64,000 bases of DNA, from assembly GCA_031414535.1 (NCBI GenBank), contig JANNVQ010000057.1, forward strand, positions 32,001 through 96,000, written 5' to 3'. Of the stretch, positions 39,817 to 56,518 are shown one piece after another. The first letter of the stretch is position 1; each line of letters begins with the position of its first letter. Source of the DNA: Gemmatimonas sp. (lineage in GTDB: Bacteria > Gemmatimonadota > Gemmatimonadetes > Gemmatimonadales > Gemmatimonadaceae). The notes below the pieces were generated by a model, which saw only the letters and a program-made list of their open reading frames with translations, was not told where the DNA came from and did not search any database. Position numbers and translations under genes: made by a program.

Positions 39817-40263
39817 TCAGGCCTCACCCAGTGACTCCAAATCAGCGAGATCTCGCGTTCGACCACTCGCGCGCTTGTTCCGAATGAACGCGTCGCGTCC
39901 GATGAAGGGAGCCGCTACGTCCCCAAAAAACGCCTCGACGCGAGTGGACCACGCATCTGCAAACGCGACGCCGCTTATTCCCGTCAAGAAATCAATGCGA
40001 TAAGGCGGTAGACCGAACTGCGCGACGATGTCTGGCTGCATTAAGTCCGCAGGCGTGATACCGAGGGCGTCCATAGGTGCGCCGAACGCCACCAAGGCCT
40101 CCCAGACTCGCGCGACGTTCTCCGCCGCGGGATCAATCCACACATCAAGGTCCGCCGTCGCGCGTGGCACGCCGTGGATACTGAGCGCGTGTGCGCCGAT
40201 GATGAGGAACCGGGCGCGCGCGCGCACGAGCTCGGCCACGATGTCTCGAAAGTCAGGATGCAC
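39817..40263 (-). CDS. Nucleotidyltransferase-fold protein (putative TA-like component)
   Basis: IGAHALSIHGVPRATADLD Pol-beta-like motif and a C-terminal NKRASGRTRDLADLE. Confidence 0.75.
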   Translation of the reverse strand: MHPDFRDIVAELVRARARFLIIGAHALSIHGVPRATADLDVWIDPAAENVARVWEALVAFGAPMDALGITPADLMQPDIVAQFGLPPYRIDFLTGISGVAFADAWSTRVEAFFGDVAAPFIGRDAFIRNKRASGRTRDLADLESLGEA

Positions 40264-40267
40264 CGGG

Positions 40268-40480
40268 CTACGACCGCGGCTCGTGCAGTCGTCGAAGAAC
40301 CACGCGCAGTGTCGCCCGGGAAGCCACTGGCAGGCGGCGTCCCGTCAGCCGCCAGGCGTCGTCGCTCAATGCCTGCAGCACGAGCAAGCGCTCCTCGGCG
40401 GCGGCCGACGGAGGGGCCGAGGCCTCACGGCTCTGCAGCGAGACCACGCGGACCGTCATCGCACCACGATTGGTACGCAT
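40268..40480 (-). CDS. Small hypothetical partner of the nucleotidyltransferase
   Basis: 70-aa ORF ending 4 nt before the NTase start. Start chosen at MRTNRG and is uncertain. Confidence 0.55.
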   Translation of the reverse strand: MRTNRGAMTVRVVSLQSREASAPPSAAAEERLLVLQALSDDAWRLTGRRLPVASRATLRVVLRRLHEPRS

Positions 40481-40716
40481 GGTGGGAAATCTAATGCTTC
40501 TGGACGCGGCGCAACCTTGATGGCGCACTCCGTCTTCCCGCCAAGTGCCACCTCCGCCTGCGGAAAGAGCACCTTTGGATGATGCCCACGCCAGCAACGG
40601 CACCAGAGGCGCCGAACTTAGGCGACGGTGGCGAACGCCGTGGTTTCACTCCAGCCTCTCAGGAAATGGAGTCTGCGGTAATCCCCGGGCCGATTCAAAG
40701 TTGGGCGTTCGCGGAC

Positions 40717-40959
40717 CTACGTCGCGGACACCAAGTCAATGAGTTCCTCAACTTCGAGCCCCAATCCGTTTGGCTCATCGGTAGGGTCCAATCCCCGCTC
40801 AATGAGTTCAGCGCTCAAGAGATCCAGCAGAAGCTCACGACCCTCAGCTAAGAGTCCTCCGCTCGCAATTGCATCCACATGAACGACTGCGTCAGCGTTG
40901 CGCCGCTGAATGATCTCTGCTAAGCGGCGAAGTTGCTGTGGGGTAGCACGTATACTCAT
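40717..40959 (-). CDS. Putative immunity protein for cassette L3
   Basis: ATGA overlap with the toxin-tip stop. Small acidic protein (GLDPTDEPNGLGLEVEELID). Confidence 0.72.
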   Translation of the reverse strand: MSIRATPQQLRRLAEIIQRRNADAVVHVDAIASGGLLAEGRELLLDLLSAELIERGLDPTDEPNGLGLEVEELIDLVSAT

Positions 40960-41495
40960 GGCACGATTCTCCACGCGCCGCGGCTCAGCGCCATTGTGGT
41001 GACGACTTCGCCGTCTGTGTTCAGCACCACTCGCGCGTTTCGGCCGACATAGAGCACTTTTCCGCCCTCTTGATGAAGAACTCTTAGGGGATTGGCGACC
41101 GCGTCTCGCATCGCCGCCTGCGTGACTCCGACACCTTCGCGTGATATTGCCTGATTCAGTCCGTGCCGGGTGAATCCCGGGATTTTGCCGCCGATTGGGA
41201 CGTTGAAGACGGCCTTGCTGGCACCCGGGAACTGATCTTCATTGAGTGCCTCAAAGAGCGAGGCGAACGCTCCGAGTGTCTTATTGACCGCACTCGAACC
41301 TCTGCCGGATGCGTTGCGATGCGCCCACCACCCGGATGAACCACGCGGGCAGTCGGACACCGCTTCGGTCTTTCCGTCACCGCCCGCAGACTTTGGGCAC
41401 AGCCCAAACGGATCCGAGAAGTTGACCGGGTCCCCGCCCGCGAAGCCATACGCATTCAGCCCACCCGCCAGCCCGATTGGGTCAAGGTGCGTGGA
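40956..41495 (-). other. Orphan Rhs toxin tip L3 (putative RNase, colicin E5/DUF4258-like)
   Basis: Frame STHLDPIG...DPFGL then CPKSAGG...GFTRHGLNQAISREG...VVLNTDGEVVT. In-frame TGA five codons upstream and no proper start. Confidence 0.78.
41400..41495 (-). repeat. Rhs junction repeat, copy 1
   Basis: Reverse complement reads TCCACGCACCTTGACCCAATCGGGCTGGCGGGTGGGCTGAATGCG...GATCCGTTTGGGCTG. Confidence 0.95.
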
Positions 41496-41555
41496 CTGTC
41501 CAGTAAATCAATCGTACGTTCAGGTCGCGGTGCACCGCAACCGTGCCTCGGCGCG

Positions 41556-41960
41556 CTACGGCGCGATGACCTTCACCGTCGGGAAGTAGGTCCGATAGCG
41601 CGCCGCATCTCGCGTCAGCAGCGCGTGGCCGCGGATCGCGGCGTGGGCTCCCACAAAGAAGTCCGGAAGTGGCGATCGCCTGGCTCCACCCGATCGCCGA
41701 TATCGCTGGAAGCATTTCCCCGCGAGGAATCCAGCATCCCAGGGGAGCGCGTCGCGTCGGAAGAACGTCGGCGGCAGTGCCGCCTCAAGATCCTCAATCC
41801 GTGCGAAGCCGACCGAGACCTCGGCATAGATGATCGGATTGATGATTAGGGCCTCCGATTCGGCGGCACGCGCGAGGGCGTCGGCCGACCACCGGAGCCA
41901 CGTCGGGTCCTCGGTTAGCACGTCCAGCAGCACGTTGCTGTCCACCAGGACGCCCGGCAT
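41556..41960 (-). CDS. vapC: VapC-like PIN domain toxin
   Basis: VLVDSNVLLD, IIYAEV, LPDFFVGAHA and LLTRD PIN motifs. Confidence 0.9.
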   Translation of the reverse strand: MPGVLVDSNVLLDVLTEDPTWLRWSADALARAAESEALIINPIIYAEVSVGFARIEDLEAALPPTFFRRDALPWDAGFLAGKCFQRYRRSGGARRSPLPDFFVGAHAAIRGHALLTRDAARYRTYFPTVKVIAP

Positions 41961-41964
41961 GCGC

Positions 41965-42192
41965 CTACTCGCCGCGGGTCAGCGCGAGAATCTCGTCGGT
42001 ACTCATCGGCACCGTGCTGCGTCCCCGAAGGTGCGCGACCAGCTTGGCGCCGCGTCGCCGACTGCGCCGCAGCTTGCGCAGCACGGCCTGACCGTCCTCC
42101 ACGACGAACTCGACTTCAGTATTCGGCAACAAGCCGAGGCGTTCGCGCACTTCGACCGGGATGGTGACCTGGCCCTTCGTCGTGATTTTCAT
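41965..42192 (-). CDS. AbrB/MazE/SpoVT family antitoxin
   Basis: MKITTKGQVTIPVEVRERLGL motif, 4 nt upstream of the PIN gene. Confidence 0.92.
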   Translation of the reverse strand: MKITTKGQVTIPVEVRERLGLLPNTEVEFVVEDGQAVLRKLRRSRRRGAKLVAHLRGRSTVPMSTDEILALTRGE

Positions 42193-42213
42193 TCGAATCG
42201 CCCCCCATGAGAT

Positions 42214-42235
42214 GTATTACCATAAGATGTAATAC
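42214..42235. promoter_or_regulatory. Inverted-repeat operator of the AbrB-PIN TA operon
   Basis: GTATTAC-N8-GTAATAC perfect inverted repeat 21 nt upstream of the antitoxin ATG, in an AT-rich stretch. Confidence 0.65.
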
Positions 42236-42310
42236 TAGCCCGGTACATTTTCATTCACAAGGAGCGATAGAAGCGGGATGGATCCTGCAGGCGAGTTCCC
42301 GCGCTCTTGG

Positions 42311-42850
42311 CTAGCCCTCGAAGTTTCGAATGCGCCGAACAACCCAGGAGCTGTGCCGTGTGCGGCTCAAGTCGACGACGAAGAATCCCCCCATCGTCCT
42401 TGGCGCGTCGAAGTACACGATGGCTTCAAGCACGGCTGCGGACGTCATGCTGCTATCTCCGACGAGTGCCAAGGCAACTGAAAGTGTATCCGATGTCTCT
42501 CCACGGACCCGGAAGCCGGATGAGACGAACAGCTTCGCTGGCGATCGACTTGCTAGTCGAAAGCGAGATCCGATCGTGGCGATTGCCGACATCTTGTTTG
42601 CTTGGAACGGTGCCACCACAGGCGCGCGGCCGATGACGGAGTCGACAACGATCACTCTACAACCCATCTCCGCGCAAAGTGAGTCGAGAGGAGCCGCTCG
42701 GAATGCGGTCGCTGCCGCTGCAACTGCAGCGGCCTGGGGTGACAATGAGGTGCGATCGACTGTTGGTCCGATGCGACAGGATGCGGTGAGCAGCAAGGAG
42801 GCCGCGAGGAGTCGCAGCGCTCGGCGGTCAAGGGTTGCGAAGGCAGCCAT
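42311..42850 (-). CDS. Putative lipoprotein immunity protein for cassette L2
   Basis: MAAFATLDRRALRLLAASLLLTASC lipobox. The start overlaps the end of the toxin tip. Confidence 0.7.
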   Translation of the reverse strand: MAAFATLDRRALRLLAASLLLTASCRIGPTVDRTSLSPQAAAVAAAATAFRAAPLDSLCAEMGCRVIVVDSVIGRAPVVAPFQANKMSAIATIGSRFRLASRSPAKLFVSSGFRVRGETSDTLSVALALVGDSSMTSAAVLEAIVYFDAPRTMGGFFVVDLSRTRHSSWVVRRIRNFEG

Positions 42851-43334
42851 TCGGCACTCCTTGGAAAGGTTGTTCGCAGTGCGCGTACTTGCTGTTGCGT
42901 TCGACGATCCCACTCAGATGAGTAGCCTCGTGCCACGCAATTCCGCCAATCCCGCTCCGCCTCGTCTCGCGGTGTGATGGTCGGACGTGCGCAACGCCGC
43001 GAGCGCCTCCGAACCGCTTTCCAATCTCTCCCATCAAGCCGACGTCGTCGTCGCGATCGAACGACCAACCGCTTCCGTAGCAGAGCTGGCCGCAGCCCGC
43101 GTCGTCGCTGTCGAACAGCACGAACAGGTCGGGTGATTGCTCCAGCTTGCTAAACGTCGCATCTGCTTCGCTGTTCGACTTGCGTATTCGAGCAACCTCC
43201 TTTTGGAGGCGCTCGCCAACAATCTTTAGGTCAGCGGCGAGCCCGAACGGATCGTCGAAGTTGACCGGGTCCCCACCCGCGAAGCCATACGCATTCAACC
43301 CACCCGCCAGCCCGATCGGGTCAAGCTGCGTGGA
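42828..43334 (-). other. Orphan Rhs toxin tip L2 (putative HExxH zinc metallopeptidase)
   Basis: STQLDPIG...DDPFGL followed by a unique domain containing WHEATH. Confidence 0.78.
43239..43334 (-). repeat. Rhs junction repeat, copy 2
   Basis: Reverse complement TCCACGCAGCTTGACCCGATCGGGCTGGCGGGTGGGTTGAATGCG... Confidence 0.95.
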
Positions 43335-43387
43335 CGGACTCGGACCTCATTTCTCGCGCGCAGTCGAGGGACCGGCTGATCGCACGG

Positions 43388-43816
43388 TCAACCGATTGAA
43401 ATCACCAGCCCCTCGGGAATCGAGAGTCTTGCCGTGGTCCCGTCCCCGGCAACCATTACCCACTCAGGTCCCTCCGCACAACCCGCTGTCTCTAACACCG
43501 AATCGTCATCAAACTTCAACGCTAGCGCACCCACCAAATCGTCGGCCTCGACTTCGACTATCCGACGCCCGGTCAGTTTGGCGACTGCTGCACGTAGCTG
43601 GCCGGCTTTACCACCCAGCATCTCACTGGACGCCAAAATGCTCGCTCCGCGTCGCCATCGCCAGCAATCCTCAAGCACGATACGCCACGATGTATCAGAG
43701 GGAGACGAGGCGGCATCAAACACCACCCGCAGTGCAGACCCGATGGGATTCGAAGCGACTACGCATTGCAAACCTACGGCCTTCTGGAGCATGCGCGTGA
43801 CGGTAATGGACGTCAT
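43388..43816 (-). CDS. Putative immunity protein for cassette L1
   Basis: ATG directly follows the toxin-tip TAG. 142 aa, no signal peptide. Confidence 0.72.
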   Translation of the reverse strand: MTSITVTRMLQKAVGLQCVVASNPIGSALRVVFDAASSPSDTSWRIVLEDCWRWRRGASILASSEMLGGKAGQLRAAVAKLTGRRIVEVEADDLVGALALKFDDDSVLETAGCAEGPEWVMVAGDGTTARLSIPEGLVISIG

Positions 43817-44263
43817 CTATTCGTGCTCCCGGTCTGTGTATTTCCGTTGCCTGCACAACTCCGTTGCCTCTTCGACGATGTCGTTGAACGAGACTGCTCC
43901 ATCTGCCCCGGCTCTGGTATCCAGCTCATCCACTCGCTTATAGAGTTCATCGCGCCCAGTGTCATTGAGCCTGCAGCTCATTCGGCGCTCGGCCTGTCGA
44001 ATTGCATCTCGGTATTGCTTGTTCTGCCTTGTGTTAGAGGCGAACTCAAGCACTAACGCACCGGTCACCGCTATGGCACTGGCAACGACGGCCCGAGCGA
44101 CGAGACGCAACAGATGGGCGCACGCGAAGGAGACGGGAGGAACAAGGCAAACCGCGGGAATTGCCAGTGTACCGTAAGGATCCGAGTAGTTGATTGGATC
44201 ACCATCCGCAAACCCATAGGCATTCAGTCCCCCCGCGAGCCCAATCGGGTCAAGCTGCGTGGA
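43817..44263 (-). other. Orphan Rhs toxin tip L1 (hydrophobic segment plus Ntox28-like helical RNase)
   Basis: STQLDPIG...DPYGT, a hydrophobic stretch, then NTRQNKQYRDAIRQAE...FNDIVEEA, reminiscent of Ntox28. A possible weak TTG start lies at 44272. Confidence 0.75.
44168..44263 (-). repeat. Rhs junction repeat, copy 3
   Basis: Reverse complement TCCACGCAGCTTGACCCGATTGGGCTCGCGGGGGGACTGAATGCC..., with a more diverged 3' half. Confidence 0.93.
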
Positions 44264-44395
44264 TGGACCCAACCTTAAACACTTCCATCATGGCTAGCTC
44301 GAATTGCGGCTAATGAAGGGCGACGAGAATAAGTTGGCTCGCTCGGTTAACGGCAAGGTGGCGAAACCACACTCAATCGATGGGCCAATCTCTGA

Positions 44396-44716
44396 CTACA
44401 ACTCACGTCGACGATTCTCTTCATCAAAAAGGTCCGCAATGAGTTGCTCGAGTGGCGGCCGCACACTCTGTGCGTGAGGGCCAATGTGCTCGAACAGCTC
44501 TCCTCCCAGCTCCGCCAAGTACACCCGAAGCGCGTCCGCGCGTTGCGCTTCGCTGACGTGGGCGATGCGCTCTATCGTCTCCGCTGCATGAGTCAAGCCA
44601 GCGTGGAGGTCCGCTAGATGATAGGCGACATCGTCTCCGCGTGGCGATCCCAGTAGTGCGCGAAATCGAAGATGAAGCAGCTCTCGGAGTTGCTTGTTGT
44701 CGGCAGATGAGGGCAT
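44396..44716 (-). CDS. Putative cognate immunity protein of the currently fused Rhs tip
   Basis: ATG 7 nt after the rhs stop with a GAAGGGA RBS. 106-aa helical protein MPSSADNKQ... Confidence 0.75.
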   Translation of the reverse strand: MPSSADNKQLRELLHLRFRALLGSPRGDDVAYHLADLHAGLTHAAETIERIAHVSEAQRADALRVYLAELGGELFEHIGPHAQSVRPPLEQLIADLFDEENRRREL

Positions 44717-44723
44717 TCCCTTC

Positions 44724-47700
44724 TCAAGCTTCCAGTGGAGGAGTGACAGCATCCAGTCGGCTTTGCCAAGCGTCGACTTGCTCCTTGTAGCGCGCATTCG
44801 TGCGGCCCTTCATGCTTTTCAAGTGGTCTCGAGCTTGGTTAATCCATCCTCGAATCTCTCCACGGTGATGATTCGCATCTCTAGCACCGGGATCCTCTCC
44901 AACGGCGCCGAGATGGCCCTCAATGTTCGCTCGCAATTGTTCGATTTTGCCAATTGCCCAGCCTTGTGCACCACTCGCCAAGACAAGCCCGTCCGCGATT
45001 GCCCCTAGACGTGCACCGAAAGCGGCTCCCGCACTAACGCCGGCTGCCCCTCCCGGAATGGCTCCAAATCCAGCGCCAGCGATGAAGCCGCCACCGCCGC
45101 CCGTCATACCTCCCATCAGCGCTCCCGTAATCGCGCCCACGGAGGTCCAGAATCCTGGGCAGTCGCGGGGATCGTTGTCCCGTGGGGGACACAGTCCAAA
45201 CGGGTCCGAGAAGTTGACCGGATCCCCACCAGCGAAGCCGTACGCATTCAGCCCACCCGCGAGCCCGATCGGGTCAAGCTGCGTGAACTGTCCCGTCGTC
45301 GGATTGTAGTAGCGGTTCCGCAAAAAGGTCAGGCCCGACGCGTCACGCCGACCACGCACCAAACTCCCGAACCAGTTGCTAAACAGAACCGGGTCGGCGC
45401 CTACGTCTCTTCGGTACGCGCTGACTGAAGCAGCTAGCCACTCCGTCGGACAGCGCCCCGGCGTGAACGTCGTGCAATTCGTCCCATCTGCCAGATTGCC
45501 AAAAGCAATGTCTCCACGCCAACCGGCCTGAGGCGTCAACGTCGTCCAGCCGGAGTCGGGCCGGAGCTTCGCAAGATGAGCCGGCGCATCGACACCCAGT
45601 CCGTGCGCGTAAAGCACGACGCCAAAGAGCAGTGGATAGGTCGGGTCCGTCCAGCCACTCGTCGTGCCATCCTGCGCCGCGATGCCCTCGCCCTCTAGAA
45701 CGGCAGCCGTCGCGTTCGCTTGTCCGCTGCTGCGGATCTCCGCTAACACTTGATCGCCATCGTAAACAGTTCGCTCGATGTATGCATCGCAGGGGCTCGA
45801 GCAGGTCGGCTCGATCTTTCTCACGCGCACGAGGACGCGCCGTCCAAGCGCGTCGTAGCGGTACTCACTCGACGTTCCGGCGACGCCATTCACGCCTTCA
45901 GCGTCTTCATGCGACATCAGTCGTTCATCGGCGCCGAAGTAGGAACGTGCGTTCCGCAGTACGGTCGATGCATCCGACAGATTGGTGCCGCGCGTGTCAC
46001 GCTCTGCGGTCGAGGTGACGTTCCCGCTGGCATCGTGCTCCAGCGCCAGCGACCAGATGTACCACGAGGGGTGGCACGAATGCACGAGCGAGGTGGCGCA
46101 GTTGCTTCCAGTATCGGCGAGCACGCCGCCGGTGAGACGGAGACCAGAGAACGTGTGGCGACGGGTACGATTGATTCCCGCTACCATATCTACATCGTGT
46201 GTGTAACGAAGCGTGCCGATGCCGTCTACCAAGAAGGCCTCGCTGCTGAGTCCGCTGGCAAGTCCCGTGACGCTCGCCAACGCACCAAGTCCAGCATATT
46301 CCAGCGACACCGGCGTGTCACCAGAACTGACGCGAATGACTCGCCCACCTGCGTCGTAGCGCAGCGTGTCAGCGGCCGGGTGACCACCGCTTCCGACCCG
46401 GCGCAACACCCTGCCCTCGCGGTCGTATGCAAGGTTGAGAACCACGCTCCCTGGCGCCGTCGTGCTCGTCAGCTGCCCTGTAGCATCGTAGGCGTAGGTG
46501 GTCTGCAGCGTCCCACCGCTAGCGCTCGGATGCGTCAGTGTGGCAAGCTCACCGCGAGACGAGTACGCATACTGCTGCAAGCAGGCACCGCTACAGGGAT
46601 CAAGCTGGGTGGGTAGCGTCAGCGAGATGCGGCGCCCGAGGTGATCGTAACCGTACTGCAGTTGATACGAATGCGCGTTCCAGTCGCTCCCGGTCTCACT
46701 GAACGCGCCGGCGTGCCGATCGCCGCCTCCGCAGGCGTTCGGAGCCTCCGTCGCATACTTCCTGATGATCTGCGTTTCGGAGAGCAACGCACCATTTGGC
46801 GCGTAGCTTCGCCGTATCCGCGCCCAATTATTGTCGGCTACTCTTGTCTGCCCAGACGCATCGTACGCGAACAGCGCCGTATCCACGCCTATGCAGCGCG
46901 TAGACGCATCATCTAAGATGGGAAAGGTGTAGGTGCAGAGAGTTCCGTACCAGTGACACAGCGCGTTGCCTTCGCTCGCGGATGGCGTCACGCGTCGCGT
47001 GAGGCGATTCAGCGCATCGTACTGCATCGCGATGACGAATCCACGGGGCTTAGTGGCCTCAATGACGTTTCCGCTGGCATCGTACGTCGAGTAGTTTGCC
47101 CCACCGCCCGGCTCCGACGCCAACGTCGCGCGGCCGAGCGAATCGTACTGCCATGTTGCGACAAGGGTGTCGCTTGCCCCTGCCGTGGCTCCATTGACCG
47201 AGAAGCGCCGGCGGTGCTGCGTAACTCGTCCCATGGCGTCGTACACTTTGCTCACTCGCACCCAGTCGGCGAGGATGATGCGGCCGTTGGCCAGCGTATC
47301 CACCGGTCCCCGCGTTACCTGCGCGCTATCGCGTCCGAGCGTATCGTACCAAATTGAGTCCACAACTCCGTATTGCACAACTAAACTGGAGTCGGTGCCT
47401 CGGGATCCGGTATCGCGAGGCGTGTACAGCCGGACGGGCCTCCCGACATTGTCATTCACCGACAAGGAGACGAAGCCAAGTGGCGATACCGTCTTGCGGA
47501 GATTGCCGCGCTGGTCGTAAATGAAGGTTGTAACGCCGCTGTCAGGCTGAGTAATCGAGAGCGGCAGACGCGCGCCGGATGCCGTGGTCGTATACGCGAA
47601 GGTCACCCGAGTCGTACTGCTGCCACCGCGTTGTTGCCAAGCGAGACTGGAGTCACTGTTGTAACTAGCGACGGCCAAGGTATCGAACTTGGTGATATCC

Positions 47701-49985
47701 GCCGCAGCGCCGGAGCGTGCCCTTATGCGCTCAATGCGGTTCAGCGTGCTGTGCCATTCGTATTCCGTTAGCGCATTACCGCTCGCACTTCCCGACGCGC
47801 CTCCATAGGGAGCCAAAGTGGCTACCGAGTCGACCAAGCCCCGAGAGTCGTAGCTTGCAACGGTACTTAGCCGCGTCGGACTAATGACGCGTTCGGGGAG
47901 CCCAGCCCAAGCTGTTGAATAAGTTATCTGTGTCTCGCGTCCAAGGGCATCGCGGAGACGAACTACGGAGCCGTGGCGGTTTACCCACATCCTGCTCTTA
48001 TCGGCGACATCGCTCCGAGGACCGTCAACCTGTGTAAATGTCGAATCGAGTGCAGTGGGGGTCCACCCCTTGGACTCGCTCGGTTCGATTGCCAGGACGT
48101 TGCCGAGTGGTCTCGTCGCCGTGATGACGCGCCGCGCAGAATCGAAAGCAAAAGTGGTCCGCGCCCCGGCTCGATCGCTGATGGCGTTGATCTCATTTGC
48201 GTATGGTGAGGACGCATACTCAAACCGCGTGGTATCCCGATCGGGATCGATGATGCGCGTCAGCCGCCCGCCTGGACGAAGTAGGATCGTTACGCGATTG
48301 CCGGGAGCCGTTATCGTCACCGAATCGCTGGCATATGCGAAGGCGTACTTCATCGAATCCACGAGCGATAGTGACGTGTCCGCAAGCGGGAGATGCATCG
48401 CCAACAGAGAGTCAGTGGTACCCGCATACACGAAGCGCGTTACGTGCCGGTCAATTGTGCGTGTGGAATCGTGACGTCCGGCCGAGTCGTAGAAGACGCG
48501 CGCATGCTCCGCTGTGTGCCGAATGTACGTACTTCCCGACTGCGTGATGCTGTCCGGGAGCGCGAAGGCGGTCGGGACCTTCCACACGCTTCCCGACTTC
48601 ACGTATCGGCGCACACTTCCATCGCCACCAATCCACAACAGCTCTGTAGAGGATCGAATCCGGAGCCGCTCAAGCCCGGCAAGCCACCATCCCGCGCCGA
48701 AGCGCGAGGCACTGTGGTTCACGATATACAGACGGCCCGTATCCGCACTCGTGTGCGACTGATTGGAGGATGTGAACTGCACGCGATACCGGTACATTCC
48801 GGTAGCCACGGTACAGCCACTAAACGGCACAACCACGCGCCGAACATTTCCTGCTGCTCCCCAGGCCGTGCCCGCTGTGCTGCGACTTCCACAAGTGGCG
48901 GACGTATCCGTACGCACAATGGAAGTCGTGCCGTCGGTCGGTAGACCAATATCAGAGCGAAGACGAATATCCGCTTGCACCAATGGGATAGGCCGTGCAT
49001 GCGCTGAGTTGTAGAGCAGGACCGGAGCTCTCGTGCGACCCATCGTGCGAACACTCACTAACGCGTGTACGATTCGTAAGTCGCCGCATTCGCTCGCGGC
49101 ATGTGGCGTGAGCGCGATAGTGACGCATGCGTTGCGCAGCAGATAGTCGCCTGCGCCAGGCGCATGACCGAAGAGATAGGCGCCAACAGCGGGAGCGGCC
49201 GTAACCGTGATATCCGTCCACGCGGAATCCCTGATGGCGGTCTCCGCTGAGCGAACCGCAAGCAGTCGCAGCAGTCCTGACGCGCCGTTGCTGTCCGACG
49301 CCGTGTAGCTCACAGTCACCGTCGAGCTCGCGCCGGCGGCAAGTGCGCTAATGGTAGAGCTCGGTGTAATTGTGCAGCTCGCGTAGATCGCGCCGGACGG
49401 ACAACCGATCGCTGTCAGCGCGAAGGTAGCGGTATCGTTGCCTGTATTGGTGACCGTAAAGCGCTCACTGCGTGAGGCTGACGGGAGGGCCTCGACGAAG
49501 CCTTGCTCGGATACGACGGCCACCGACCGTCTCGCAGCTGGCGGAAAGTAGGTCTTGATGCTCTGGTAGAAGTAATCGCGAAGGCTGTAGATGTGAGCGT
49601 TTACAATCACCGGTCCTGTGGTCGGAGTCACGCTGACCGTTCCTACCCACTTCACAAACACTTCGTCTGACTGATTCCCGAAGAAGTTGCACTCCGCTGG
49701 ATCGGCATTCTCCATCGTGAAGTCGCCAGTGACGTCCACGTAGCTGGCGGAGGTGGCGTAATTCCAAGTTCGAATCTGGATGGTGGCGAGGTTGATCATG
49801 TTGTCGCCGGCTTCGTAGGCGCAGGCCAGCACCGTCACCGTTACTGAGCCACTCAGGACCACGGACGACAGCGAGGGAGAGACAGTAAGCGTTGGCTCCG
49901 TCTGTGCGCTCGCCTGCGGTGCGAGACTGGCGACGAGCGCAGCCGATGCGGTAACGCGCATCAAGTGTCGGGCAATAGTTCTCAT
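44724..49985 (-). CDS. Full-length Rhs/YD-repeat polymorphic toxin with Sec-type signal peptide
   Basis: 1753 aa. Signal peptide ...LAPQASAQ, Ig-like N-terminal region, many YD repeats (YDAMGR, YDALNRL, YDALGRR) and core end RYYNPTTGQFTQLDPIG...DPFGL, followed by a variable tip. Confidence 0.95.
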   Translation of the reverse strand: MRTIARHLMRVTASAALVASLAPQASAQTEPTLTVSPSLSSVVLSGSVTVTVLACAYEAGDNMINLATIQIRTWNYATSASYVDVTGDFTMENADPAECNFFGNQSDEVFVKWVGTVSVTPTTGPVIVNAHIYSLRDYFYQSIKTYFPPAARRSVAVVSEQGFVEALPSASRSERFTVTNTGNDTATFALTAIGCPSGAIYASCTITPSSTISALAAGASSTVTVSYTASDSNGASGLLRLLAVRSAETAIRDSAWTDITVTAAPAVGAYLFGHAPGAGDYLLRNACVTIALTPHAASECGDLRIVHALVSVRTMGRTRAPVLLYNSAHARPIPLVQADIRLRSDIGLPTDGTTSIVRTDTSATCGSRSTAGTAWGAAGNVRRVVVPFSGCTVATGMYRYRVQFTSSNQSHTSADTGRLYIVNHSASRFGAGWWLAGLERLRIRSSTELLWIGGDGSVRRYVKSGSVWKVPTAFALPDSITQSGSTYIRHTAEHARVFYDSAGRHDSTRTIDRHVTRFVYAGTTDSLLAMHLPLADTSLSLVDSMKYAFAYASDSVTITAPGNRVTILLRPGGRLTRIIDPDRDTTRFEYASSPYANEINAISDRAGARTTFAFDSARRVITATRPLGNVLAIEPSESKGWTPTALDSTFTQVDGPRSDVADKSRMWVNRHGSVVRLRDALGRETQITYSTAWAGLPERVISPTRLSTVASYDSRGLVDSVATLAPYGGASGSASGNALTEYEWHSTLNRIERIRARSGAAADITKFDTLAVASYNSDSSLAWQQRGGSSTTRVTFAYTTTASGARLPLSITQPDSGVTTFIYDQRGNLRKTVSPLGFVSLSVNDNVGRPVRLYTPRDTGSRGTDSSLVVQYGVVDSIWYDTLGRDSAQVTRGPVDTLANGRIILADWVRVSKVYDAMGRVTQHRRRFSVNGATAGASDTLVATWQYDSLGRATLASEPGGGANYSTYDASGNVIEATKPRGFVIAMQYDALNRLTRRVTPSASEGNALCHWYGTLCTYTFPILDDASTRCIGVDTALFAYDASGQTRVADNNWARIRRSYAPNGALLSETQIIRKYATEAPNACGGGDRHAGAFSETGSDWNAHSYQLQYGYDHLGRRISLTLPTQLDPCSGACLQQYAYSSRGELATLTHPSASGGTLQTTYAYDATGQLTSTTAPGSVVLNLAYDREGRVLRRVGSGGHPAADTLRYDAGGRVIRVSSGDTPVSLEYAGLGALASVTGLASGLSSEAFLVDGIGTLRYTHDVDMVAGINRTRRHTFSGLRLTGGVLADTGSNCATSLVHSCHPSWYIWSLALEHDASGNVTSTAERDTRGTNLSDASTVLRNARSYFGADERLMSHEDAEGVNGVAGTSSEYRYDALGRRVLVRVRKIEPTCSSPCDAYIERTVYDGDQVLAEIRSSGQANATAAVLEGEGIAAQDGTTSGWTDPTYPLLFGVVLYAHGLGVDAPAHLAKLRPDSGWTTLTPQAGWRGDIAFGNLADGTNCTTFTPGRCPTEWLAASVSAYRRDVGADPVLFSNWFGSLVRGRRDASGLTFLRNRYYNPTTGQFTQLDPIGLAGGLNAYGFAGGDPVNFSDPFGLCPPRDNDPRDCPGFWTSVGAITGALMGGMTGGGGGFIAGAGFGAIPGGAAGVSAGAAFGARLGAIADGLVLASGAQGWAIGKIEQLRANIEGHLGAVGEDPGARDANHHRGEIRGWINQARDHLKSMKGRTNARYKEQVDAWQSRLDAVTPPLEA
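45192..45287 (-). repeat. Rhs junction repeat, copy 4 (inside the full-length rhs gene)
   Basis: Reverse complement TTCACGCAGCTTGACCCGATCGGGCTCGCGGGTGGGCTGAATGCG...GACCCGTTTGGACTG. Confidence 0.95.
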
Positions 49986-50231
49986 CTTGCGTTGCTCCGC
50001 ATTCGAGTGAGGTCTATGGTGCGCCGTTCGTTTTCAATGCTCGTGCAGGTACAAGCGTTGTCAAGCGCACGTTCATGGCGATGACCCACTCACGTGAGCT
50101 TGGTCACGGCGACAGAAATGCGACAGCAACGGCAGTGCGCGCCGCTGATGGGACGAGACATGTGGAGACAGCATCGACGATGCTTTCCAACGCGTTCGCG
50201 CGATTGTTACTATGATTCTTGCATGAGCCAC

Positions 50232-50327
50232 TCCACGCAGCTTGACCCGATTGGGCTGGAGGGTGGACTGAATGAGTACGGCTTCGCTGAAGGCGATCCA
50301 ATCAACTTTTCGGATCCGTTTGGGCTG
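50232..50327 (+). repeat. Rhs junction repeat, copy 5 (inverted relative to rhs)
   Basis: TCCACGCAGCTTGACCCGATTGGGCTGGAGGGTGGACTGAATGAG...GATCCGTTTGGGCTG. Confidence 0.95.
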
Positions 50328-50717
50328 TGTCCTAAAGCGGCGGGAGGCGACGGGAAGACGGAGGAGTACTCCGACTGTCCTCGTGGAAGTTCCGGATACT
50401 GGGCTCATCAAAGCATGCAGGGAAACGGCGGGTTGCTCACTGAGGTGCGCGGTACCACTGCATCATGCGATGAGAGCACGGCGTGCTTGGCCGTCGCGAT
50501 TGCTGGAGGCGCGTATGTCGGGACGCTCGTTGCCGTCGAAGCCGGGGCATCTAGGCTGGCCGCTACAGCGCTTGCGCTGATGCAGTCGAACAGATACCTC
50601 CGCATCGGCGTCGGACGACATAACGGCAGGCGTGTATTTCGGGCTGCGGGCAAACTCGTGCAGAAGATCAAGAAGGACGGTCACATCGACTTCTGGGACA
50701 TGGGGCCTCTACCATGA
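50232..50717 (+). other. Orphan Rhs toxin tip R1 (hydrophobic segment plus small basic domain, unknown activity)
   Basis: STQLDPIG...DPFGL CPKAAGG...NRYLRIGVGRHNGRRVFR...GHIDFW. An in-frame ATG lies at 50223. Confidence 0.78.
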
Positions 50718-50989
50718 CAACCGAACTTTCGGACTTTCAACGAGACGCGCTCGCCGATATTCGAGACGTCCTGAAGGATGCCGGTCGCTCATCCGAGTCG
50801 GAATCGGTGTTGGGCAACCAGGAGAAGTACGTAGCGATTGCATTCGGCGGCTACAAGGCCCTACTGTACGCGGACGGGGCTGAGTTACTCGGCAACGGGC
50901 TGGATCGCCGATTCGAGAAGTACGATTTCGACTCCCTGGACGACCTTCGCATTCACTTTATTCTCGAGCTGCGCCAGTTAATGACCTAA
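50714..50989 (+). CDS. Putative immunity protein for cassette R1
   Basis: ATGA overlap. 91-aa acidic protein paired with a basic tip. Confidence 0.75.
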   Translation: MTTELSDFQRDALADIRDVLKDAGRSSESESVLGNQEKYVAIAFGGYKALLYADGAELLGNGLDRRFEKYDFDSLDDLRIHFILELRQLMT

Positions 50990-51070
50990 CCCGCCGGGTT
51001 CTGCCTTGGCGCGCCGGCGCCATCGGCATGGGCCCTCGCCGCTCCGCTGTAAGCTCAGCCGTCGCGTCCA

Positions 51071-51166
51071 TCCACGCAGCTTGACCCGATCGGGCTGGCG
51101 GGTGGGTTGAACGCGTATGGCTTTGCGGGTGGGGACCCGATCAACTTCTCGGATCCGTTCGGGCTG
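51071..51166 (+). repeat. Rhs junction repeat, copy 6
   Basis: TCCACGCAGCTTGACCCGATCGGGCTGGCGGGTGGGTTGAACGCG... Confidence 0.95.
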
Positions 51167-51634
51167 TGCCCCCATGACCCAGCTCGGCCATGTCCTGCTT
51201 GGACGGGAGCCAAGGCCGCGGCTGTCGTCTCAAGGTTGGCAGATTGGGCTTCGAACATGGCCGTACTGCCGAGCATCACCGTTACAGCCGGGCCCATACA
51301 GGCTGAGTTCAGCGCGGACGGAGTGGCAGTCACCGGCAGTGCACAGATGGCGCTTGCGCTGACCCTCAACGGGACGGTCGGGCGGGGCGCAGGGGAACTC
51401 GGGACCCTTTCAGTCGGCGGACTGGTCGGGACAGGATTCGTCGGCGGAATGACTGCAAGTTTCGACGCCAAGTCCAAGAATCTTGAAGGAGTGACGTACA
51501 GCATCGGCATTGGCTTTGCCTTGCCTGTCGCGAAATCGATGGAGTTGTCGGATGCCGGCGCGAAGCTTCTTTCCGGCGCCGGTACGGTGGGTGTTGGACT
51601 GGGCGAAGGAAGAATGAAAGCGAAGAAGCAATGA
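51071..51634 (+). other. Orphan Rhs toxin tip R2 (Gly-rich, possibly membrane-active)
   Basis: After DPFGL comes a Gly/Ala/Val-rich amphipathic sequence with no catalytic motif. In-frame TAA seven codons upstream of the repeat. Confidence 0.75.
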
Positions 51635-51918
51635 CCAAGAAATTTCCGTTCAACGACGGCACCGACGACGTGCCTCTGCGGCTCATCGCCACGATTCCAA
51701 TCTGGATGCTGCGCGCAGCGGTGGGCGGCGTAGCTGGTGTCCGGATGTTTGTGCTTGTACTGGCCGTCGATGGGCTGCTGATTTTGGGAACTTGGATAGC
51801 AATCGCGCCATCTGTGCGCTCGAATTCCGAGGTGGGCAATCCCGCCTCAGGAGAGCGGTTCGTACTTTTGCCGCTGGTCTTGGCGGGAGTGTTGACCTTG
51901 TTCGACTTGTTTCCGTGA
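51631..51918 (+). CDS. Putative membrane immunity protein for cassette R2
   Basis: ATGA overlap. 95 aa with 2-3 hydrophobic helices. Confidence 0.68.
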   Translation: MTKKFPFNDGTDDVPLRLIATIPIWMLRAAVGGVAGVRMFVLVLAVDGLLILGTWIAIAPSVRSNSEVGNPASGERFVLLPLVLAGVLTLFDLFP

Positions 51919-51988
51919 CTTTGATGTCTGTCGTCGGTGCACACGCACAGTACCCCAGCGGCACGCCTACTGGCACTCATTAGGATAG

Positions 51989-52084
51989 TTCACGCAGCTT
52001 GACCCGATCGGGCTCGCGGGCGGGCTGAATGCGTACGGATTCGCGGGCGGGGATCCGGTCAATTTCTCGGATCCATTCGGGCTG
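51989..52084 (+). repeat. Rhs junction repeat, copy 7
   Basis: TTCACGCAGCTTGACCCGATCGGGCTCGCGGGCGGGCTGAATGCG... Confidence 0.95.
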
Positions 52085-52543
52085 TGTCCACAAGACGTGA
52101 CGGGAAAGCCATGTCAGAATCCGCTGGGCAATCTGGCGCTGAACGTGAGGCCCGGCATAGGAGGATTCGAGCTGAACTCGCAGCGTACGGCGGGCGTTCA
52201 CGGCGGCATCGACTTACTCGCGCCCAAGGGCAGCGATGTGACGGCCGCTTCTGACGGAGTGTTTGAACGACGAAGCGATCCCAACGGGCTTGGTGATTAC
52301 GCCGTCGTGTGGCACGGAGGGAGCGCAACGGTATACGGCCACCTCTCGGGTTTCGCAGACGGGCTCCGAACGGGCGATCGCGTTCGCGCAGGACAAGTCA
52401 TCGGCAAGACGGGTGACAGCGGGAACGCGAAGGGAACGCCTGACCACCTTCACTTCGAGATTTGGACAGACTTCAAGACGGTTGGTCGAGGTGGGACAGC
52501 CGGCCGACGTGACCCAGAACGTGAACTTCGTAAGGCGCCGTGA
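51989..52543 (+). other. Orphan Rhs toxin tip R3 (M23 family peptidoglycan endopeptidase)
   Basis: HGGID, YGHL, GQVIGKTGDSGNA and HLHFEI M23 motifs. In-frame TAG immediately before the repeat. Confidence 0.88.
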
Positions 52544-53109
52544 AGAACAATCTTACGTTGACTAAGCGAGCAGTTGTGCTTCCTCTGCATTTGCTGTTGA
52601 TGAGCGGAGCCGGTTGCGATAGAGCACCTGCGCCTGCGGCGGCACTGCCGCAGAGAACTGAGTTCGCGGTGCAGTTCGATTCTACCGTCGGTGCGGACTC
52701 CACCGGACTTCGATCCGCGCTCATCGCATTTGGTGACTCGCTCCACCTGACTCACTTTCAGGCAAGCATCAGTCAGTTCGGTGGCGCTCCTACGAGATAC
52801 TTCGCGTTTCTAATTGGTCCTCCGGCGTACAAAAGCGGAAACGTTCAGTTCGCGTTGCTCACTGCGCGCGATGGGGCCTTTGCGGTGAAGGACCTTTTCG
52901 ACACGGGCGTCCCGTCCGGTCCAGTAGGTATCGCACTCGAGGCACTCGCTGACTTCGACTCGGACGGTCTTCCCGATGCGCACTACTGCGACTTTAGTTT
53001 GGCCAGTGACTCCACTCCGGTATCGCGTGTGCTGGGATACGGAGGCGCTGGATGGTATGCTGTTCAAACTTCGAAGGCGGTTCGATGTCGAGCGGACACC
53101 AGTCGCTAA
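52540..53109 (+). CDS. Putative lipoprotein immunity protein for cassette R3
   Basis: GTGA overlap and a lipobox-like LLLMSGAGC. Confidence 0.72.
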   Translation: MKNNLTLTKRAVVLPLHLLLMSGAGCDRAPAPAAALPQRTEFAVQFDSTVGADSTGLRSALIAFGDSLHLTHFQASISQFGGAPTRYFAFLIGPPAYKSGNVQFALLTARDGAFAVKDLFDTGVPSGPVGIALEALADFDSDGLPDAHYCDFSLASDSTPVSRVLGYGGAGWYAVQTSKAVRCRADTSR

Positions 53110-53361
53110 TGCGAGCCGCTGCACTGCCTAACCTTAAGTTCTGCTGCAGCGGCGCCGGCGCTGGCAGCAGCGACTCGGGTTCGGCGGGTCGTCTCGGGTT
53201 CGCTCGCCAACGTGTGCCCCCGCGACAACCCCATTGGTCGGGTCGAATCGGCGCGGGGTTTGCCGGACGCTCGATTGCTCAATCGCGCCCCGCCCCCTCC
53301 GACACACACACAGCGCGTACCGACTCGACTCGCGCAGAAGCGGACCGCCCGCGAGCCGTGC

Positions 53362-53946
53362 TCAGCGCGGGGTCAAACAACGCGCGAGCAAGTCGCTGAC
53401 GCCGAGGACGGGGGCCCATCGATTCAAGACCGTGCGGTCGAGTGCGTCCTCCTGCAGCGCGACAATTGCCGCCACGTCGCGCCACTGGCGCTCCGAGACC
53501 TCGCCCCCCCGGCGGTACCATTCCAGCTTGCGCAACAGTGTGTGCTCGGCGGTGTCGAGCCAGAGCGACCCGGTCGCTGGCGGGGGCACGGGCACCGCCA
53601 CCCGCGTGCGCAGGCGCTCGTGATCAAACGCGTCATCTCCCGCCACGAACACATCAACCTTCACCCCGGCCTGCAGGTGCACGAGGTTGAAGGTTGTGCC
53701 GAGGCGCACTGCGTCGCGCGCAGCGTCCGCGTCCACGTAATAGTCTCGCGCGAGCGCGGCGACGACCCGACTCACGGTGCTGACGCGGAGGTCAGCGACG
53801 AGATCCACATCCAGTGTGGCGCGTGGTTCGCCATGGACCGAGCTCGCGAGCGAGCCGCCAATCACATACGGGACGGCGGCGGCCTCAAGCTGCTGCGCCA
53901 CGTCAAGCGCGACCGCGAGGACGTCGAGTTTGGGCGGCGGAATCAC
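53362..53946 (-). CDS. Nucleotidyltransferase-fold protein (putative TA-like component)
   Basis: IGGSLASSVHGEPRATLDVD motif and KLEWYRRGGEVSERQWRDV. GTG start overlaps the partner's stop. Confidence 0.78.
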   Translation of the reverse strand: MIPPPKLDVLAVALDVAQQLEAAAVPYVIGGSLASSVHGEPRATLDVDLVADLRVSTVSRVVAALARDYYVDADAARDAVRLGTTFNLVHLQAGVKVDVFVAGDDAFDHERLRTRVAVPVPPPATGSLWLDTAEHTLLRKLEWYRRGGEVSERQWRDVAAIVALQEDALDRTVLNRWAPVLGVSDLLARCLTPR

Positions 53947-54194: not shown

Positions 54195-54295
54195 GCTGTA
54201 AAGGTCGCGCAGATGCTGGGGGTCGCGCCACTGGTCTGGGCGGCGGGCGCAATTGCCGTCGGTCGACGCGCGGTTATGATTGGGGAGCGGGCCCA

Positions 54296-54391
54296 TCCAC
54301 GCAGCTTGACCCGATCGGGCTGGCGGGTGGGTTGAACGCGTATGGCTTTGCGGGTGGGGATCCGGTCAATTTCTCCGATCCGTTCGGGTTG
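54296..54391 (+). repeat. Rhs junction repeat, copy 8
   Basis: TCCACGCAGCTTGACCCGATCGGGCTGGCGGGTGGGTTGAACGCG... Confidence 0.95.
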
Positions 54392-54865
54392 TGTCCGCCT
54401 GAAGAGACAGGGCGGCCCTGCACTGCGGGCGGTGTCGACTACAGGAGTGTTCGGGGAAAATCGACCGCCGTCCCATCAATGGCGACGTATGTCAGTTCGT
54501 TGGCGCGCGATCTCGGCTATCACATCGTAGTGACGAGCGGAGATCGTGACCGCGTCCCAAGTGGCGGAGCGACTACCAGCAACCATTTGATTCCTTCAAT
54601 GAATCCATCTCGAACAGGAGCGGTCGACTTTAAGGCATACACGCCGAATGGGCAGATGGTGCCGATGGGCAAGCTGTTTAGTGAGTCGCTGGACGCCGCA
54701 TCAACCGAATCCAGTCACGCACGCCTGATTTGGCACGACGTTGGCACAGTGACGGGTACGCAGCACCTGCATGCGGACAAGAGCACCGATGGCCACCGCT
54801 ATGAAGCGGGAGAGAAGAACACGAGGGGCAGAGCTGTTTACCGGCCCGTCGGGGGCAAGCCATGA
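54296..54865 (+). other. Orphan Rhs toxin tip R4 (M15/Hedgehog-DD-peptidase-like)
   Basis: VTSGDR...SNH...AVD...HLHAD pattern matches M15-type zinc peptidases. Confidence 0.75.
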
Positions 54866-55449
54866 TGCGGAACTCGACACTTGGCATGCTTGTTCTCGGA
54901 GTCTTCTCCCTGATTGGGTGCACAACCAAAGAAGAGCCCGCCAACCGCAGCGGTGCCAGCCAAGAATCTGCCGCGGACTGGATACTCGACTCTGGTCAGT
55001 TTAGGAATCGAACGTCACACCGGGTTGAACCTGTTCCAAGCAGTCTTCCGGAAAACATCTCCGCGCTGGAGGATGTGGATGGTCCCGATGGTACAGAGTT
55101 GTACACCTACATCTTGCTTGGCTCTGATACGGTGGGCGTCTACTTGTGGTCCACAGCACGAAGACTCGAACGACTCCGAATCCTAAGCTCCCGAGTGCAC
55201 ACGCCCAGTGGTGGCCACGTCGGCCTGACCGCTACGGCTCTTGCAGAGAAGGTGGGAGAACTCGAAGTGATAACTACTGAGGAGGGCGTGCTCGTTTGGG
55301 GCACGCGAGATCGCGAGTTCAGCTTCGTACTCGGCGCTGGAACGCAGCCGCGCGATAGCAGCGTTTTGAGGTCTCAAGGCTTCGTTGCGAGCGACACCGT
55401 CCAGATGATTCTTTGGTCGCGCAATCGGGTAGCGCGACAACGCAAGTGA
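54862..55449 (+). CDS. Putative lipoprotein immunity protein for cassette R4
   Basis: ATGA overlap and lipobox VFSLIGC. Confidence 0.75.
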   Translation: MMRNSTLGMLVLGVFSLIGCTTKEEPANRSGASQESAADWILDSGQFRNRTSHRVEPVPSSLPENISALEDVDGPDGTELYTYILLGSDTVGVYLWSTARRLERLRILSSRVHTPSGGHVGLTATALAEKVGELEVITTEEGVLVWGTRDREFSFVLGAGTQPRDSSVLRSQGFVASDTVQMILWSRNRVARQRK

Positions 55450-55567
55450 TGAGGGTCGATACTAGGCGGCTCACGGTATGAGGGCAGGGAGTTGATCCGT
55501 GAACATGGCGTTAGTGTCGTCGCGTTCCGGGGCAGCACTGAATGTTTTTCCGCGAGTGCCCTGTTGC

Positions 55568-56518
55568 TCACCCCGCGGGATGTGTTAGCAGGTGTACCTT
55601 CTGCAATCGCGCGACCGACACGTGCGTGTAGATCTGCGTGGTCGTCAGTCGCGTATGCCCGAGCAGTACCTGCAAATCGCGAATGTCCGCCCCAGCGTCG
55701 TGCATCAAAGTTGCCATCGTATGGCGAAACACGTGGCAACTGCCTCGTCCACGGATGCCTGCCGCATGCAACCGCGCTTGGCATAGCGCGGTGAGCGTCT
55801 TCGGCGTCAGGCGGCCCCCGTGGCGACCGAGGAACAGCGCGGGCTCATCGACCGACTTCGAGCATCGAATACGAGCCGTCGCCACATAATTCATGACTGC
55901 CACGACAGCACGCTTGCCTACCGGAACAACGCGCGACCTCCCGCCCTTCCCGCGCCGTATCCGTACCAGGCCTTCCTCACCCGCAAAGTCGCACACATCC
56001 AAAGCGCACACCTCCGCGCGGCGCAGCCCGGACGAGTACATCAACTCGAGCATCGCGTGATTGCGCACCCCAATCGCTGACCGTCGCGGCACGGCAACGA
56101 GTACTCGATCCACCTCATTCACCGACAACGTCGCAATTGGCGGACGCTCAGGAATGCGAATCGATGGCAGTTCACTCCAAAGGTCTCCGGCAATCAAGCC
56201 ACCCCGCTGAAGCCAACGAAGAAAGGCGCGAAGCGCACCGACATCCTTAGCAACCGTTGAACGGTCCACCCTGCCGCCGCTTCGCGTCGAGCGAGTCTGA
56301 AGTCGGCCCAACAGAGACTCGATCACTCCCAGGTTAAGCTCGCGCGGAGCCACAACTCCGAGCACCGAGAGCTCTCGGGTGATTCCGCGGAGTTGCACCG
56401 CTCGAGTGCGAACTGTGCTCGCTGCGCTGCCCATCGCCACAAGGTGCGCGAGGAAACGCGGCACTGACTCTTGAAGAGTTGGGTCAGTATCTAAATGTGC
56501 CGCCAACGCGCTGCGCAC
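55568..56518 (-). CDS. Tyrosine recombinase, XerC/XerD family
   Basis: Complete catalytic set: SGLRRAE (R), GKGG (K), HVFRH (HxxR), LGH and TTQIYTHV (Y). N-terminal SAM-like domain, 316 aa. Confidence 0.93.
   Translation of the reverse strand: MRSALAAHLDTDPTLQESVPRFLAHLVAMGSAASTVRTRAVQLRGITRELSVLGVVAPRELNLGVIESLLGRLQTRSTRSGGRVDRSTVAKDVGALRAFLRWLQRGGLIAGDLWSELPSIRIPERPPIATLSVNEVDRVLVAVPRRSAIGVRNHAMLELMYSSGLRRAEVCALDVCDFAGEEGLVRIRRGKGGRSRVVPVGKRAVVAVMNYVATARIRCSKSVDEPALFLGRHGGRLTPKTLTALCQARLHAAGIRGRGSCHVFRHTMATLMHDAGADIRDLQVLLGHTRLTTTQIYTHVSVARLQKVHLLTHPAG

Follow-up and report, generated by a model that had tools for sequence, protein, structure and literature searches.

Accounts of the R64/IncI shufflon describe a tyrosine recombinase (Rci) that acts at short sfx sites and exchanges the tips of pilV (PMC11852207, PMC4176322). 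For Rhs toxins, the published descriptions are of C-terminal displacement and orphan tips, with a circular intermediate proposed (Jackson 2009, PMC2935791; Hagan 2023, PMC10539506); tip change is credited there to homologous recombination, and one paper states that no integrase goes with Rhs. Xer-type genes have also been described beside poly-immunity arrays (Zhang 2012, PMC3482391; preprint 10.64898/2026.07.13.738213). Here we analyze a 64,000-nucleotide window (the whole stretch studied, positions 32,001 to 96,000 of contig JANNVQ010000057.1, assembly GCA_031414535.1) from the sediment bacterium Gemmatimonas sp., in which one rhs toxin gene is surrounded by eight stored alternative tips, each opening with a copy of what is very probably a 28-bp recombination site of the neighboring tyrosine recombinase, centered on the hexamer CACGCA. 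Integrons, the Mycoplasma vsa and vpma loci, and phage Rin shufflons are all recombinase-run cassette arrays with one expression site; the cassettes here differ in being gene halves fused in frame.

The locus resembles the R64 shufflon in i) combining a tyrosine recombinase with short in-frame sites; ii) having a layout that would allow the C-terminus of one protein to be swapped by multiple inversion; and iii) conserving the spacer and right side of the site better than the left. The sfx site, however, is described as 12-7-12, and Rci uses an extra C-terminal domain to bind its highly variable left arm in a non-specific way (PMC11852207), whereas the present site is 11-6-11 with conserved, dyad-leaning positions; and unlike R64, the cargo consists of toxin-immunity pairs, the central constant body would flip too, and the sites carry a 96-bp homology tail. 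Nor does the inversion-only behavior of R64 extend to the family as a whole (this enzyme itself aside), since the site bounds direct tandem units in genome G086 and tip content differs in X3, a relative from another study at about 94% identity. The system would operate as a shufflon does, yet it falls outside the Rci/sfx family.

Like the Rhs orphan tips of the published accounts, the locus has one rhs body, strings of silent tip-immunity units, and exchange between strains; unlike them, its rhs remnants have one fixed edge, face both ways, and are associated with a single recombinase clade. The recombinase-associated acquired interbacterial defense (rAID) arrays of Bacteroidales (PMC12247911) and the XerC/D-flanked poly-immunity loci (PMC3482391) also place a tyrosine recombinase beside interbacterial-conflict genes, but as described they hold co-oriented immunity genes with intergenic motifs and have no mapped crossover, whereas here the site lies inside the toxin frame and would change the toxin. 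The enzymes of family NF002331 (PRK01287 'XerC') found by a DnaG-like primase are the best-scoring relatives, and the window enzyme nests among them; unlike them it falls below the family cut-off, has no primase in its genome, and has inverted sites. Our search of main-text literature found no Rhs shufflon or mapped site, and likewise no paper on NF002331 recombinase-primase elements; Martinkus et al. 2026, cited by the preprint above, may overlap. The question of how Rhs tips change dates from 2009, and a defined 28-bp site paired with a small putative cognate enzyme opens it to experiment.

The candidate site in the window

The proposed site reads TCGGGTC-N4-CACGCA-N4-GACCCGA, a layout of 11-6-11 totaling 28 bp, which fits the two inverted arms of 11-13 bp and the 6-8-bp spacer of tyrosine recombinase core sites; numbered from the first base of the hexamer, the spacer occupies +1 to +6, the right arm +7 to +17, and the left arm -11 to -1. 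The copy now fused to the rhs gene (site 4, 45269..45296, minus strand) consists of left arm 45286-45296, spacer CACGCA 45280-45285, and right arm 45269-45279, and lies within codons for T-G-Q-F-T-Q-L-D-P. The initial annotation of this stretch had put it slightly off, at 45273-45297, although the eight 5′ edges it quoted match the window letter for letter. Also on the minus strand are site 1 (41477..41504), which has two right-arm changes and opens terminal tip 1, site 2 (43316..43343), which opens tip 2, and site 3 (44245..44272), which opens tip 3; on the plus strand are site 5 (50223..50250, tip 5), site 6 (51062..51089, tip 6), site 7 (51980..52007, tip 7), and site 8 (54287..54314, terminal tip 8). 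Copies 1-4 therefore read leftwards and 5-8 rightwards, all tips facing away from the single rhs body. The left arm is present at both ends of that body, and because the left arm of site 5 lies about 240 bp ahead of the rhs start, sites 4 and 5 bound a 4.95-kb invertible rhs body.

The 17-mer made up of the hexamer and right arm, CACGCAGCTTGACCCGA, has eight matches in the window at 3 or fewer mismatches (shuffle control: mean 0.41, maximum 4, 0 of 100 shuffles reaching 8), and at 2 or fewer mismatches only these eight copies match anywhere in the 3.70-Mb assembly. Seven copies are exact, and copy 1 alone differs, at +7 and +16. All eight copies agree at each of the six hexamer positions and seven or eight across the right arm, and the sharp onset of identity first noted at the hexamer is borne out by a step from 6/8 at -1 to 8/8 throughout CACGCA; over -11 to -1, column agreement is 3, 5, 6, 5, 8, 3, 7, 4, 4, 8, and 6. 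The wobble variation reported outside the hexamer and arm was likewise reproduced: 22 of 26 third codon positions vary in +19 to +94, compared with 2 of 6 in +1 to +17, both in copy 1 alone. The rare Leu codon CTT (10% genome-wide) is used in all eight sites. The repeat edge splits a Phe codon after its second base and was therefore not placed by protein selection. Compared with the reverse complement of the right arm, the left arms of copies 1-8 match at 4, 6, 8, 6, 5, 8, 4, and 7 of 11 positions (window mean 2.9), so that the imperfect inversion first seen in copy 6 (8 of 11) stands. The left arm, originally called variable, is degenerate but not free, with G at -7 and T at -2 in 8/8 copies and C at -5 in 7/8.

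Spacer and arms in related loci

An enzyme search of 61 related genomes returned homologs 41-46% identical to the window enzyme, and regions picked by the enzyme alone carried tip arrays beginning at the same hexamer. Site set 1, assembled from the enzyme search together with DNA likeness and pattern finds, holds 99 sites from 17 loci in 13 genomes, of which 83 are silent and 16 follow an rhs-type left side. Four mirror copies on contig C8 of genome G028 had been removed beforehand, as had sites whose left flank was shorter than 40 bases, and the protein-motif finder overlooks part of the copies, as with 7 of 11 on G028 contig C6. In the 15 multi-copy loci of set 1, +1 to +6 are invariant within every locus (15/15), compared with 6/15 at -1, 12/15 at +7, and 3-8/15 at later wobble positions. 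Silent positions are constrained as well: the Thr codon is ACG and the Asp codon GAC in 99 of 99 sites, compared with 30/36 and 21/36 in recombinase-free loci and 50% and 60% genome-wide.

Site set 2 (86 sites, 72 of them silent, on 30 more contigs) was found through the downstream part only. There, +2 to +6 are invariant in 72/72 silent sites, and +1 is uniform within each array, being T in some (G011, G033, and part of G010) and C in the rest, with no contig showing both letters. One G033 copy (contig C221) has an altered +2. Tyrosine recombinases generally require the spacer to match between partner sites but allow it to differ between systems, and a letter at +1 that is array-specific but array-uniform is what we would expect of a homology-dependent spacer. 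The TACGCA variant accompanies one enzyme subclade.

Arm symmetry peaks at a 6-bp spacer in both sets (0.54 in set 1, compared with 0.18-0.39 for lengths 2-12; 0.52 in set 2, compared with 0.15-0.42), which rules out spacer lengths of 2-5 and 7-12. Symmetry is concentrated in the outer 7 bp, TCGGGTC / GACCCGA, half of which any rhs gene already contains in its T-G and D-P codons; the silent left-arm consensus of the window, TCGGGTC, is the exact inverse of GACCCGA, and symmetry is imperfect in the inner 4 bp. Silent left arms (83 sites) carry G-8 in 66, G-7 in 74, C-5 in 71, and T-2 in 62, and in G815 the final 10 left-arm bases are identical in 12/12 copies. The inner four right-arm bases vary by locus (GCTT, GCAG, GGAA, GCGC, GCCG, ACCT), and left and right arms covary weakly between loci (40/85, compared with 33 permuted, p 0.007), a result from 17 non-independent loci in which no single position is significant. 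The likeness to sfx sites proposed at the outset thus holds for the better conserved spacer and right side, but not for a left arm with conserved positions nor for a right arm whose inner 4 bases vary between loci. Judged by sequence comparison, the core is symmetric, though imperfectly so, and its left arm is degenerate rather than free as in sfx-type sites.

Several genomes hold more than one array (G028 contigs C5, C6, C8, C9, and C12; G067 contig C2; G012; G010), each with its own enzyme and with inner right-arm letters that are mostly array-specific, which suggests insulated systems.

Natural recombinants

All site pairs were compared for common flanks or common tips. Nine pairs share a tip and differ in their left side; six of these have at most one mismatch across the 96-bp repeat and begin to differ at -1, -1, -3, -3, -4, and -17. 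Eleven pairs share a left side and differ in their tip, with first mismatches at 7, 7, 8, 16, 17, 19, 19, 22, 23, 53, and 77, so that 9/11 diverge by +25, three of them at +7/+8; the median first mismatch is 19, where 17 would be expected if the repeat were unlinked from its start and 57 if crossovers were even. The chance of such patterns under evenly scattered crossovers is 0.013 for the same-tip pairs and 1e-5 for the same-left pairs. Most recombinants in relatives thus appear to bracket the exchange between -1 and +7.

One tip occurs both in G028, where it is fused to rhs, and in G813, where it is silent; the two copies are identical from +1 onward. G028 contig C8 contains a 9.9-kb mirror of its own array running from the rhs site to the contig end, again from +1 (95.8% identity, 173 gaps), and contig C9 joins the same rhs body to a different tip; the simplest reading of the C8 mirror and of the C9 form is that inversion states coexist.

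The neighboring recombinase

The recombinase gene (316 amino acids, 55568..56518, minus strand) lies downstream of tip 8 and has NF002331 as its best family. Its R-K-H-R-H/W-Y catalytic set is complete at the expected motifs (R166, K191, H262, R265, H288, Y297), and the PF00589 match (E 4.8e-35) stops at residue 302; 19 residues follow the catalytic tyrosine. At 244 bits the enzyme falls short of the NF002331 cut-off of 371, which its primase-associated relatives pass (377-516 bits). In a quick tree, 20 enzymes from CACGCA loci form one clade (Shimodaira-Hasegawa-like approximate likelihood ratio test, SH-aLRT, 99) inside the wider family best matched by NF002331, and the labeled sequences around this clade point to Gemmatimonadota as the probable phylum of the bacterium; in the order of Buttiauxella, the enzyme occurs in 4 of 151 genomes at E 1e-75.

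Other identities were considered and rejected. Scores for housekeeping XerC and XerD (TIGR02224 and TIGR02225) are 196 and 194 bits, compared with cut-offs of 335 and 330, and the other Xer-like genes of this genome (contigs C7 and C30) branch apart; for the integron integrase IntI (TIGR02249) the score is 87 bits, compared with a cut-off of 265; and Rci is set aside by the lack of an extra C-terminal domain, the catalytic match ending at 302 and the protein at 316. In X3, the recombinase gene has lost one base and gained another three bases away (56194-56197), and its frame is kept.

Proposed mechanism and alternatives

Taken together, the invariance edges, the dyad peak, the recombinants, and the association with the enzyme support the crossover site originally proposed (11-6-11, with CACGCA as spacer in the F-T-Q-L-D-P codons), and we consider it very likely that the 28 bp around CACGCA are the recombination site of the neighboring tyrosine recombinase. 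In the mechanism we envisage, two recombinase subunits would bind the imperfect inverted arms (outer TCGGGTC / GACCCGA), and strands would be exchanged across the 6-bp spacer, identical between partners, the length and position of which derive from sequence comparison. Because the spacer is in frame at F-T-Q, every exchange would give a body-tip fusion, joining the rhs body to a new tip and its immunity gene. With four sites facing each way around the body, inversions alone could present any of the eight tips with no DNA lost; an inversion-only model using opposite sites reaches 10,080 arrangements, with every tip within two steps. Tip gain and loss between strains, and homologous exchange within the 96-bp repeat, would add to the shuffling.

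Several observations weigh against a site of this kind. Crossovers scattered along the repeat, which the initial annotation had named as contrary evidence, were found in part: 6 of 9 same-tip pairs exchanged at the edge, but 3 of 9 exchanged deeper, at or beyond +58, +88, and +94, one of them a clean switch near +88. Homologous exchange therefore also acts, and the hexamer would be the main but not the sole exchange point. The window repeats have a mosaic look, failing the four-gamete test in 47 of 105 column pairs, to which wobble homoplasy can add; many of the recombinant pairs come from two genomes (G086 and G028) and so are not independent; the G028 mirror, with its 173 gaps, may be an assembly error or mixed molecules; some of the related loci were found by patterns requiring ACGCA; and L075, a recombinase-free locus, also has a sharp-edged spare tip. 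Among 346 discriminating left-arm positions, 162 follow the dyad, 136 rhs coding, and 48 neither, so that rhs descent explains much of the left-arm signal, and T at -2 lies outside the symmetry. The arms are GC-rich and variable beside the spacer, unlike dif-type sites. In the public contigs of four runs (X1-X4) no inverted joint was seen; these contigs break inside repeats, where shared 31-mers explain the breaks, so that inversion is neither shown nor excluded.

The alternative that survives best, although we think it improbable, is that the site is real but its copies are fossil integrations, attL/attR scars of tip-carrying insertions, with switching now rare or carried out by RecA across the 96-bp inverted repeats. 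In its favor, both loci with a full primase beside the enzyme (G086 and G439) have direct copies only, with the site at the borders of their tandem units. The fossil explanation also gains from the tip turnover between strains in X3, from the exchanges inside the 96-bp repeat, and from the X1 and X2 runs, in which no second arrangement was seen (contigs only). Integration alone, however, should leave direct copies, yet 9 of 15 multi-copy loci with the recombinase have both orientations (1 of 15 without it), and none of these nine has a full primase, nor has this genome; moreover, spacer and arm are conserved at silent positions in all eight window sites, none of the six catalytic residues has been lost from the enzyme, and the single assembly of G028 contains two arrangements.

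To return to active switching by the resident recombinase and its likely origin, many members of the wider enzyme family, inside and outside the clade, lie after a DnaG-like primase and ahead of an Rhs tip, with lineage-specific edges, and primase, NF002331-type recombinase, and Rhs tip occur together in Myxococcota, Planctomycetota, Actinomycetota, and Enterobacterales in other registers. In G086, rhs is followed by a new tip, the primase, the enzyme, and then a silent tip, and the tandem units have the site at their borders, as would be expected of a circle that had integrated there and pushed out the old tip. The split between direct copies with primase and inverted copies without it leads us to infer, from small numbers, an integrase domesticated into an invertase. 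Most likely, the system would have descended from a primase-plus-recombinase element that integrated at this rhs spot and displaced the old tip; the primase would since have been lost here, and the enzyme would now serve a resident toxin shufflon. More broadly, we lean toward the view that a widespread family of primase-recombinase elements attaches at the Rhs core end and replaces the tip, and has been domesticated several times into a reversible toxin shufflon as here, with clonal siblings expressing different toxins. If so, this would be a shufflon with toxin-immunity cargo; site-specific recombination would become a principal route by which polymorphic toxins diversify; the large family of genes that are annotated as 'XerC' and lie beside primases would find an explanation; and the recombinase-site pairs, in several locus-specific variants, could provide new engineering tools.

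As side observations on such elements, loci L001-L003, L005, L006, L008, L009, L016, and L132-L137, from several phyla, have the order primase, recombinase, Rhs tip, with the tip starting in register RYY, LHKY, or DP; and a 120-kb stretch of G086 (C2:1243000-1364000; L076, L077, L108-L113) contains two rhs genes, 22 sites in one orientation throughout, three recombinase-primase units, and duplicated tips.

The remaining alternative is that there is no site, only orphan Rhs tips with a 96-bp homology block, an edge set by the onset of protein selection, CACGCA as codon bias, and the recombinase as bystander. Our control for this was 31 Rhs loci of the same phylum without the enzyme in the roughly 20 kb fetched (one holds a 54-residue fragment). 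CACGCA is the commonest F-T-Q spelling there as well (28 of 36 T-Q-coding sites), so that its mere presence, on which the hexamer argument first leaned, proves little, and it is the invariance in silent copies that tells; left arms do resemble decayed rhs sequence, and homologous exchange is the model of the published accounts (PMC2935791, PMC10539506). But the edge falls mid-codon, between the second and third base, in all arrays alike; silent positions are frozen only in +1 to +17; the same-left pairs would arise from scattered crossovers with a probability of 1e-5; and remnants in recombinase-free orphans are long and variable, with a median of 164 open codons compared with 14.5 where the enzyme is present, spare copies retaining an in-frame core motif in 15/17 and 9/82 cases, respectively. 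We therefore give this explanation very little credence.

Strain turnover

X3 still has its rhs body, together with the flanking sequence that bears left arm 5 and the segment of tip 8, its partner, and the recombinase; tips 2-5 and 7 are without cover, and other tips stand at the rhs body. Absent cover is weak evidence alone, its sole backing being loose ends at 45189/45193 that carry other sequence; no conclusion was drawn from the thin coverage of tips 4 and 5 in X2 or from the small shares in X4 and X5. The differences in X3 would reflect turnover between strains, and are not proof of switching within a clone.

Tips, partner genes, and flanking motifs

The locus has the layout of an Rhs polymorphic toxin: an Rhs body, a core end with DPxG..DPxG, and variable tips each with a small gene. 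Each copy of the repeat starts an open frame (STQLDPIG..DPFG) followed by a unique tip of 148-189 residues from site to stop and then by a small partner gene. The rhs gene (44724..49985, minus strand, 1753 amino acids, PF05593 and TIGR03696), fused at present to tip 4, is the only full rhs in the assembly, and by eye its N-terminus resembles a signal peptide. That the tips are toxic would follow from the Rhs layout.

On the minus strand, tip 1 and its partner span 40717..41493 (tip 41493-40956; partner open reading frame, ORF, 40717-40974), with a weak likeness to a colicin D/E5-type ribonuclease cluster; tip 2 and partner span 42311..43332 (tip 43332-42828, with an HExxH motif by eye; partner ORF 42311-42913); tip 3 and partner span 43388..44261 (tip 44261-43817; partner ORF 43388-43816, with a DUF6188 match at E 0.005, below cut-off); and the partner ORF of tip 4 is at 44396..44797. 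On the plus strand, tip 5 and partner span 50234..50989 (tip 50234-50717, with a weak Ntox21 cluster likeness; partner ORF 50714-50989); tip 6 and partner, 51073..51918 (tip 51073-51634; partner ORF 51631-51918); tip 7 and partner, 51991..53109 (an M23 peptidase, E 3.6e-20; partner ORF 52540-53109); and tip 8 and partner, 54298..55449 (a weak M15 peptidase match, E 0.043; partner ORF 54862-55449). Tip 7 alone has a firm family; tips 1, 5, and 8 have weak leads and 4 of 8 tips none, a Pfam search at E up to 2 naming no family for tips 1-6, and Atlas matches for tips, which scored below 0.9, being treated as leads only. Tips 1 and 5 share about 25 more codons past the repeat and then part (41360-41493 / 50234-50410, a 181-base inverted match). 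By eye, the partners of the three peptidase-like tips (42311-42913, 52540-53109, 54862-55449) have a hydrophobic start ending in cysteine, like a lipoprotein signal, which fits action outside the cytoplasm.

The segment that separates site 1 from site 2 carries a PIN toxin and AbrB-MazE antitoxin pair (41556..42192, minus strand). Two further gene pairs, both unnamed, are located within the outer segments or next to them (53362-54296 and 39817-40603), one with a weak nucleotidyltransferase match (E 0.28). All three pairs could protect the array from being deleted.

In Salmonella, promoters are known inside rhs, at a different position (PMC7043789). In the window, a TAnnnT hexamer (TACAAT) occupies -23 to -18 of site 4 (45303..45308, minus strand), a possible -10 box or accessory site, and another stands in the same register at site 8 (54275..54280, plus strand); two of five promoter-like hits in 40300-56800 coincide with TAnnnT hexamers. 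In related loci, TAnnnT starts at -30 to -19 in 41 of 81 silent flanks, compared with 4.6% of control stretches, and it may be a -10 box keeping silent immunity genes expressed, an accessory site, or a remnant of Y-D codons.

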